Source: a virus
Length of the DNA stretch: 24,124 nucleotides
Reading direction: 5' to 3' (one strand)
UHGV virus genome: UHGV-0149432
The translations under genes were made by a program, and so were the position numbers. Every line of letters starts with the position of its first letter. Position 1 is the first letter of the stretch. The notes beneath the pieces were generated by a model. The model was given only the letters and a program-made list of their open reading frames with translations. It was not told where the DNA came from and made no database searches. Below, piece by piece: positions 4,888 through 5,157 of the stretch.

Positions 4888-4903
4888 CTGTATAAATATA
4901 CAG
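4888..4903 (+). promoter_or_regulatory. LexA (SOS) box
   Basis: CTGTATAAATATACAG matches the CTGT-N8-ACAG LexA operator consensus; located 20 nt upstream of the dinI-like start and overlapping an AT-rich -10-like element. Confidence 0.7.
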
Positions 4904-4923
4904 TTTTCGTGGTGGAGCCCATT

Positions 4924-5157
4924 ATGAAAATTGAATTAACCATTGATCGTACTAAGAAACTTCCTGATGGCGCAGTGCTAGCATTAGAAGCTGAACTGTT
5001 ACGCAGACTCAGTCAGAGCTATGAAGATGTGAAACTGACAGTTCGTCGCGCCGGAGCTGACGGCCTGAGTATTCTGGGGGGTGAAAAAGGGGATAAGCAG
5101 TGCATTGAGGAGATTCTCCAGGATACCTGGGAAAGCGCTGACGACTGGTTTTACTAA
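4924..5157 (+). CDS. dinI: DinI-family damage-inducible protein homolog
   Basis: 77-aa product MKIELTIDRTKKLPDGAVLALEAELLRRL...ILQDTWESADDWFY closely resembles DinI (C-terminal TWESADDWF motif); GGAG SD; LexA box upstream. Confidence 0.85.
   Translation: MKIELTIDRTKKLPDGAVLALEAELLRRLSQSYEDVKLTVRRAGADGLSILGGEKGDKQCIEEILQDTWESADDWFY

Follow-up and report, generated by a model that had tools for sequence, protein, structure and literature searches.

The repressors of the Gifsy prophages of Salmonella are not cleaved upon induction. They are inactivated by small antirepressors, GftA, GfoA and GfhA, whose genes sit in a LexA-controlled operon with the order dinI-antirepressor-irsA (PMC3121763). 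The small ORF alone is enough for prophage induction, GfoR and GfoA form a complex, and a prophage in which the LexA-box segment is replaced by PBAD becomes inducible with arabinose (PMC3121763). Trans-action between heteroimmune prophages is documented as well: either of GfoA and GfhA can inactivate GfoR as well as GfhR, and FsoA of Fels-1 inactivates the Gifsy-2 repressor (PMC3121763).

The Gifsy dinI genes have one LexA box each, 19 bp from the ATG, and RNA-seq of S. Typhimurium showed that nalidixic acid raised expression of the Gifsy-1, -2 and -3 copies 23-, 14.5- and 4.6-fold, respectively (PMC8072944). DinI-3xFLAG accumulates following mitomycin C treatment, and every Gifsy prophage has a terminator-like palindrome before its LexA box (PMC3121763). 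Lemire, Figueroa-Bossi & Bossi (2011) reported that the dinI-irsA region is conserved in Citrobacter (PMC3121763).

We analysed a related locus in the virus genome UHGV-0149432 (24,124 nucleotides; the whole of this stretch is called the window below). Positions 4794-6386 are very probably a copy of the LexA-repressed dinI-antirepressor-irsA module, the SOS induction switch of Gifsy-type lambdoid prophages, that has been orphaned in its present setting. The features of the module are as follows.

4794-4814, plus strand: Rho-independent terminator CCCGCTTCGGCGGG followed by a T run, found by terminator scan; the conserved module starts here
4863-4868, plus strand: presumed -35 hexamer TTGATC, nearly invariant over 10 aligned loci (TTGAAT in Gifsy-1)
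4886-4891, plus strand: presumed -10 hexamer TGCTGT, 17 nt downstream of the -35 and overlapping the operator
4886-4905 (core 4888-4903), plus strand: predicted LexA operator, 20-mer TGCTGTATAAATATACAGTT, with 3 mismatches to the consensus and a position kept in relatives
4924-5157, plus strand: dinI homologue, 77 aa, operon gene 1 (Pfam PF06183, PHROG 189, PDB 1GHH/7YWA)
5158-5273, plus strand: dinI-antirepressor spacer, 116 nt, conserved (95% mean column identity, 10 loci)
5274-5522, plus strand: putative gfoA-type antirepressor gene, GTG start, 82 aa (gfoA primers, synteny, PHROG 340)
5560-6159, plus strand: irsA-like gene, DUF1367, 199 aa, operon gene 3 (Pfam PF07105, E=1e-94; PHROG 319)
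6159-6365, plus strand: 68-aa ORF, last gene of the conserved module (PHROG 1212)

A near-consensus LexA operator precedes dinI

The pattern CTGT-N8-ACAG occurs only once in the window, as the 16-mer CTGTATAAATATACAG at 4888-4903. On its own this loose match is weak evidence because 20 of 100 shuffled sequences also contained at least one (0.22 matches are expected by chance). The 20-mer at 4886-4905 is more telling: it differs from the LexA consensus TACTGTATATATATACAGTA at three positions, and none of the 100 shuffles matched that consensus with three or fewer mismatches. The sequence fits the operator pattern of the LexA regulon. Ten further CTG-N10-CAG sites exist in the window, and all of them lack the combination of a CTGT...ACAG core with an AT-only spacer.

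The operator lies 18 nt from the dinI ATG. In nine relatives that were picked independently of the box, by protein identity or by megablast, its position relative to the TTGATC -35 and to the dinI ATG was constant (9/9).

An alignment of ten loci pointed to a presumed promoter made up of TTGATC, 17 nt and TACTGT, with the operator beginning within the -10 hexamer. The window departs from this arrangement at one position, having GGTGTGCTGT where the relatives have GGTATACTGT, i.e. A4887G at the -11 position of the -10 hexamer. The outer flanks of the operator are TG/TT in the window copy as compared to TA/TA. Among 89 related promoters, collected by an IMG/VR pattern scan in which the -10 positions were left free and from the loci already at hand, the hexamer was TACTGT in 87 and TGCTGT in two, one of which is the window. 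The strength of the window promoter is therefore uncertain. In sigma-70 promoters a G at -11 could substantially weaken the promoter, and by this reasoning the window promoter may be weak or dead.

The same 23-mer, GGTGTGCTGTATAAATATACAGT, is present in an unrelated phage contig of 49.6 kb (L037) with the same TTGATC and 17-nt spacing. There, the operator-promoter precedes a umuD-like gene (positions 2853-3257 of the contig; GFPSPAADY motif) in the nin region. Judging from these sequences, the operator-promoter seems to be a cassette that passes from one SOS-controlled phage gene to another.

The initial annotation had described a consensus LexA box overlapping the promoter of a DinI-family prophage gene and had placed the two at 4888-5157. 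An operator does stand immediately upstream of such a gene (3 mismatches in 20; PF06183, E=6e-25), and those limits are accurate, running from the start of the box to the dinI stop codon. The box is better called near-consensus, and the presumed -10 that it overlaps has a G in place of the -11 A found in 87 of 89 relatives.

The dinI product is a phage paralogue of DinI

The ORF listed as 4885-5157 has its true start at the ATG at 4924, which is preceded by a GGAG Shine-Dalgarno sequence at 4914-4917. The predicted protein matched the Pfam DinI model PF06183 at 87.7 bits against a cut-off of 24.2 (E=6e-25) and over profile positions 1-63 of 63, placing it in the DinI-like family across the whole domain. 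It also matched PHROG 189, “RecA filament binding protein DinI”, and aligned end to end with E. coli DinI in PDB entries 1GHH and 7YWA (residues 1-76, E=6e-20).

Contact between DinI and RecA is made by a negatively charged C-terminal helix, as established in studies of the E. coli protein. This helix, ILQxTWESADDWF, is conserved in the window, where ILQDTWESADDWF aligns to ILQETWESADDWF of E. coli DinI; 12 of its 13 positions are invariant in the DinI alignment, the exception being D/E at position 4. Overall identity was 62% to the DinI of Gifsy-1/2 and 55% to that of E. coli. The protein scored 96.2 bits with NCBIfam NF007893, the equivalog model for chromosomal DinI, which has a cut-off of 111. 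It is therefore a phage paralogue rather than the product of chromosomal dinI.

The gene following dinI is a gfoA candidate

The primers pp866 and pp867 were used to clone gfoA from the Gifsy-1 prophage of ATCC14028 (PMC3121763). Both match the ORF at 5274-5522. The forward primer pp866 is identical at 17 of 17 positions (5278-5294), directly past the start codon, and the reverse primer pp867 at 19 of 22 positions (5483-5504). This agreement at both ends of the ORF, together with its location in the slot occupied by gftA in Gifsy-1/2, argues that it encodes a GfoA/GfhA-type antirepressor. The assignment is based on primer matches and position rather than on the full published sequence, because the protein has no detectable similarity to GftA and no Pfam or NCBIfam model.

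We do not claim homology between GfoA and GftA. BLASTP gave E=0.72, and hhalign produced a colinear alignment of 60 columns with a probability of 4% and E=0.01.

Proteins of the GfoA family formed 303 clusters from Citrobacter, Salmonella, Enterobacter, Klebsiella, Leclercia and others, and the cluster at 90% or greater identity to the window protein includes many Salmonella enterica sequences. Among the best 120 of the 303 matches all source names were “hypothetical protein”, despite the experimental characterisation of 2011. An AlphaFold model built from an alignment of 65 sequences was of moderate confidence (pLDDT 66.6) and consisted of three strands and one helix. A Foldseek comparison of this model to the PDB returned nothing below E=0.48, and a sequence-profile search of the PDB gave no meaningful match.

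The collection has 1116 blocks indexed with the exact window protein. In all eight of the places listed from these blocks it lay within a DinI-ORF82-DUF1367 module. Seven of the eight had an HTH_3/YdaS/YdaT-type immunity region 7-9 kb upstream along with O/P or DnaB genes, and the eighth (L011) begins inside the replication genes.

The repressors of these phages offer a possible target. At GfoA-type loci with at least 6 kb of upstream sequence, 15 of 18 repressors were at least 86% identical over a C-terminal segment of ~51 aa (…DEQRLLELYRQLPEEEQQNMLRIVSLRLKELDELYAKYMGRRIKG) while their N-terminal HTH parts differed. The segment is present, for example, in the repressors of loci L004-L009 (in L004 at 1299-1688, minus strand). 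A version with 40-48% identity was found at the loci that carry an 81-aa relative of GfoA, and one of three GftA loci had the segment. Its distribution suggests that this segment is the antirepressor target, or a candidate docking site, and is consistent with reports that GfoA and GfhA cross-react with heteroimmune repressors.

The module is a discrete cassette with several antirepressor alleles

Downstream of the gfoA candidate are the DUF1367 gene, for which PHROGs gives the label NinB/Orf-like, and the 68-aa ORF. The order in the window is dinI, the GTG-start 82-aa ORF, DUF1367, the 68-aa ORF, ninG and Q. The DUF1367 gene occupies the position of STM2620/STM1020 in Gifsy-1/2. The succession of terminator, LexA box, dinI, small putative antirepressor ORF and irsA (DUF1367) is that of the Gifsy-type operon. 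The 68-aa ORF follows DUF1367 at loci L004-L009, L011, L115 and L117; at L010 and L118 the ORF is present with no DUF1367 call.

Homology between the window and its relatives starts at about 4776-4824, around the terminator, and stops at about 6386. Since it is bounded in this way, the module is a discrete mosaic cassette. Megablast against phage genomes identified Gifsy-1, Gifsy-2, SEN34, SW-37 and coliphage mEp237, and the synteny in mEp237 is identical to that of the window module.

At every locus with enough downstream sequence the slot after dinI was filled by one of four types of small ORF. These were the 82-aa GfoA type (50 loci), an 81-aa relative that is 38-42% identical to GfoA (11 loci), the 73-aa GftA type (10 loci) and a 60-aa type (4 loci).

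The dinI-gfoA spacer is unusually conserved

The 116-nt spacer and the ~50 nt of dinI that precede it (5110-5273; 2500-2660 in locus L001) are far more conserved than the flanking coding sequence. In the ten-locus comparison this conservation extended to Gifsy-1, which carries the unrelated gftA allele: the dinI 3' end and spacer are 92-95% conserved even between gfoA and gftA loci, with 92.6% identity between the window and Gifsy-1/2. The loci with the 81-aa allele have a different spacer of 40-48 nt.

A weak hairpin with a T run was found at 5161-5186, directly after dinI. It may be a partial terminator that holds the antirepressor below DinI levels. It is equally possible that the conserved spacer serves as a recombination linker. 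A promoter scan detected no sigma-70-like promoter in 5158-5273, the local fold of the spacer had a z-score of only -0.45, and no Rfam match was found in the dinI region.

Two RNA-based candidates were rejected. The first was sequestration of the gfoA Shine-Dalgarno sequence by an upstream CCCUU; in GfoA-type spacers its pairing probability was not above that of shuffled controls. The second, suggested by work on the sRNA DinR (PMC10907235), was a DinR-like sRNA from the dinI 3' end acting on ftsZ. Duplex energies between the dinI 3' region and the start of E. coli ftsZ were no better than those of shuffles (56, 184 and 122 of 300 shuffles were equal or better).

The module resides in a defective prophage lacking an immunity region

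The PhoP protein encoded at 50-724 (minus strand) is identical to CKO_01922, and exact look-up of the integrase, DinI, GfoA and TolA-like proteins returned Citrobacter koseri entries for all four. Judging from these proteins, the host is Citrobacter koseri. The prophage lies directly upstream of phoPQ, with the integrase stop codon 70 bp from the phoP start (725-794), and the promoter region of phoP may be altered or replaced by it. Related integrases (88% identity or less; loci L012-L034) also adjoin phoP in Citrobacter, Enterobacter, Lelliottia and Scandinavium, so the attachment site at phoP is conserved.

Between int/xis and dinI only a DUF4060 gene, a recT-DUF551 fusion and a gene for a lipoprotein with a TolA C-terminal domain are left. 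The two parts of the fusion meet at ~3072-3080: on the minus strand a recT-family gene reduced to its 3' end (2640 to ~3080), and on the plus strand a DUF551 gene reduced to its 3' half. The deletion that gave rise to this region (2640-3380) took the early-left, immunity and replication regions. With tblastn, none of the six repressors of intact relatives, nor their YdaS, YdaT, O, P or DnaB proteins, had a counterpart in the window; on this evidence a cognate short, non-cleavable CI-N-terminal-like repressor is missing from it. Since the immunity region is lost, GfoA would be without a target in cis and the cassette is an orphan.

The lipoprotein (134 aa; 3535-3939, minus strand; Pfam PF06519, E=9e-11) also occurs at locus L009 and is a moron just upstream of the SOS cassette. 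It could act as a decoy for TolA-dependent colicins or filamentous phages.

Genes beyond the module are also damaged. The Q antiterminator gene (7082-7765) has a nonsense codon, W102stop at 7385-7387, relative to the intact Q of L008, and ninG is split into 6311-6457 (48 aa) and 6460-6948 (162 aa) in different frames. Beside these broken neighbors all four module ORFs (426 codons) are intact. We found no terminator-like site on the plus strand from 5500 to 7830. As PR is deleted, this leaves the LexA-controlled promoter as the one recognisable promoter upstream that could feed Q. It is a matter of speculation that the Q nonsense mutation would shield the cell from SOS-triggered expression of lysis genes. 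No tail-gene families were recognised among the ORFs scanned up to 21404.

Downstream of Q, positions 7781-7857 matched the Rfam family isrJ, an Hfq-binding sRNA of Salmonella, at 55.5 bits (gathering score 37). A PR'-like promoter (7749-7777) stands before the match and a strong terminator (7830-7857) at its end. As a whole, 7749-7857 looks like a short PR'-tR' leader of the sort that Q would antiterminate.

The deletion junction and the promoter allele are common to the window and four other C. koseri loci, and an exact search for the junction in species-representative genomes found nothing. One locus, L115, matches the window at 100% identity for 11 kb, which makes this a young lineage. Sister loci show further decay, including a split int and a deletion of 8801-15855. 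In L118 a deletion runs from inside gfoA (5341) to 17821, removing most of gfoA and all of irsA, which suggests that gfoA is dispensable.

A model for the orphaned module

The reading that we favor is built on what the window contains, namely the sequence features, homology and synteny described above, and on the absence of a cis repressor from it. LexA control, induction by DNA damage and antirepressor activity have been demonstrated in Salmonella, and by analogy we infer that this copy is expressed, regulated by LexA and able to produce active GfoA.

In the undamaged cell, LexA would occupy 4886-4905 over the -10 and keep the operon off, and the terminator at 4794-4814 would block read-in and insulate the module from upstream transcription. 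Upon DNA damage RecA would become active, LexA would cleave itself and the operon would be transcribed, giving DinI, which is predicted to bind RecA filaments, the 82-aa GfoA-type antirepressor and the IrsA/DUF1367 protein. The hairpin and T run after dinI could stop some transcripts short of gfoA.

In an intact phage, GfoA would then bind a small, non-cleavable, CI-N-terminal-like repressor of the GfoR type and strip it from its operators, leading to lytic growth. In the C. koseri prophage, with the repressor, cro/cII-like and replication genes deleted and a nonsense mutation in Q, the orphan module would add at most DinI, IrsA and an antirepressor acting only in trans on another GfoR-type phage.

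Alternative explanations

One alternative is that DinI itself is the functional unit, an SOS-induced cargo protein modulating RecA filaments and thereby tuning the kinetics of SOS or how other prophages are induced. The initial annotation had taken this view of the gene. In Gifsy-1 and Gifsy-3, non-polar deletions of dinI left both the level and the rate of induction unchanged, and non-polar irsA deletions likewise had no measurable effect on induction (PMC3121763). The invariable presence of one of four small ORF types after dinI, two of which (GfoA and GftA) are proven antirepressors, also points away from DinI as the main product, and the score below the equivalog cut-off marks the protein as a paralogue whose RecA activity is putative. 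On the other hand, DinI is full length with its RecA-interacting helix conserved, and without a cis repressor DinI and IrsA are the sole products with an obvious target in the cell. The four sister loci examined all kept DinI and the operator, even L118 with its loss of gfoA and irsA; this retention is biased because the loci were found through DinI. Overall we regard this explanation as unlikely. The gene was rightly counted among the few intact ones, given the missing immunity and replication region, the nonsense codon in Q and the split ninG. It is not self-contained cargo: dinI leads a LexA-controlled operon, the key product of which would be the GfoA-type ORF at 5274-5522, and tuning of RecA is an unproven role.

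A second possibility is that the orphan module has been kept for an antirepressor acting in trans, which upon SOS induction would inactivate the GfoR-type repressors of other Gifsy-like phages, whether resident or incoming, and so coordinate or force the induction of these phages. The documented action of GfoA, GfhA and FsoA on heteroimmune prophages (PMC3121763) provides a precedent. The window GfoA is identical to the protein of prophages with a complete immunity region, and the repressors of such prophages have a common C-terminal segment despite their different HTH domains. The window shows no sign of a GfoR-type prophage in the same genome, however, L118 has lost gfoA, and the lineage is too young for selection to be inferred. 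We find retention for this purpose improbable.

It could also be supposed that the module is a silent, decaying remnant, its promoter killed by the A-to-G change at -11 and its genes still intact as the deletion is recent. The -10 hexamer is TGCTGT instead of TACTGT, and a simple consensus sigma-70 scan called no promoter at the operator region; such a scan would miss the TACTGT version too. The prophage as a whole is degrading, as seen from the lost immunity and replication regions, the changes in Q and ninG, the split int and the deletions of the sister loci, and the perfect identity to L115 over 11 kb speaks for a young lineage. The four intact ORFs next to the broken ninG and Q do not fit this picture well. 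E. coli lexA operator 1 likewise starts with TGCTGT. Since an identical 23-mer, with the same spacing, stands before the umuD-like gene of an unrelated phage, the TGCTGT allele is probably a working variant and not a lesion, and it may have been gained by recombination. Promoter decay as the main story is weakened by this finding, and silence of the module is in our view rather doubtful.

Finally, we consider it very improbable that this lineage-fixed, immunity-less remnant keeps its intact SOS-controlled antirepressor cassette as a trans-only, host-resident “SOS relay” destabilising Gifsy-type lysogeny in resident or incoming phages that have the shared repressor C-terminal segment, and that the DinI:antirepressor ratio is set by the dinI 3' end and spacer through attenuation or as an RNA element.

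The preferred explanation, an orphaned copy of the Gifsy-type induction module, bears on several wider points. There is a class of enterobacterial prophages that wires induction to LexA via a small antirepressor rather than via RecA-stimulated cleavage of the repressor. As the GfoA family is unlabelled in annotations, a reader sees “DinI” and overlooks the real switch. The roles of phage DinI and IrsA could be tested cleanly in the natural background of an orphan copy, which has no cis repressor. In addition, where antibiotics damage DNA, orphan antirepressors in defective prophages could affect how other prophages are induced and hence how their cargo spreads.

Comparison with known systems

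LexA-controlled antirepressors that act against non-cleavable repressors, as proposed here, are also known in coliphage 186 (Tum), in Fels-2 and PSP3 (split tum) and in phage N15 (AntC). The C-terminal half of Tum is DinI-like, and in PHROG 189, a profile of 151 positions, the window DinI covers 71-148, which fits Tum-like members with an N-terminal extension. The window does not have a fused antirepressor-DinI protein of the Tum type: its DinI is a separate ORF of 77 aa and the putative antirepressor gene begins 116 nt downstream. dinI comes first in the window module while the order is opposite in PSP3, and the window element is lambdoid and not P2-like.

Chromosomal dinI of E. coli and Klebsiella, with its 3'-derived sRNA DinR (PMC10907235), shares with the window gene the LexA box, the acidic C-terminal helix and a hairpin with a U-run right after the stop codon. 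Unlike at the chromosomal locus, transcription in the window must run on into downstream genes.

The closest match is to the Gifsy prophages. Gifsy-1/2 have the order LexA box, dinI, 73-aa GTG-start ORF, DUF1367, 67-aa ORF, ninG and Q. As in the dinI-gfoA-irsA operon of Gifsy-1/Gifsy-3 and the dinI-gftA-irsA operon of Gifsy-2, the window has an upstream terminator, a TTGAnn -35 and a LexA box that covers the -10 and is separated from the dinI ATG by 18-19 nt. Also common to the window and Gifsy are a DinI of 77 aa, a small GTG-start ORF behind a spacer of ~110-117 nt, irsA, a 67-68-aa ORF and a ninG-Q region. The LT2 record carries the gftA allele, to which the window ORF at 5274-5522 has no BLASTP similarity, and megablast does not align the 5' two-thirds of the window dinI to Gifsy dinI because of their divergence (62% protein identity). 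The window further differs from Gifsy in its host, Citrobacter koseri, in its lack of a repressor, immunity and replication region, in its broken Q and ninG, and in its -10, TGCTGT. The module is thus of an already known kind, a copy of the described LexA-controlled prophage induction operon. Particular to the window copy are its orphaned state in a lineage-fixed defective prophage and its atypical -10.
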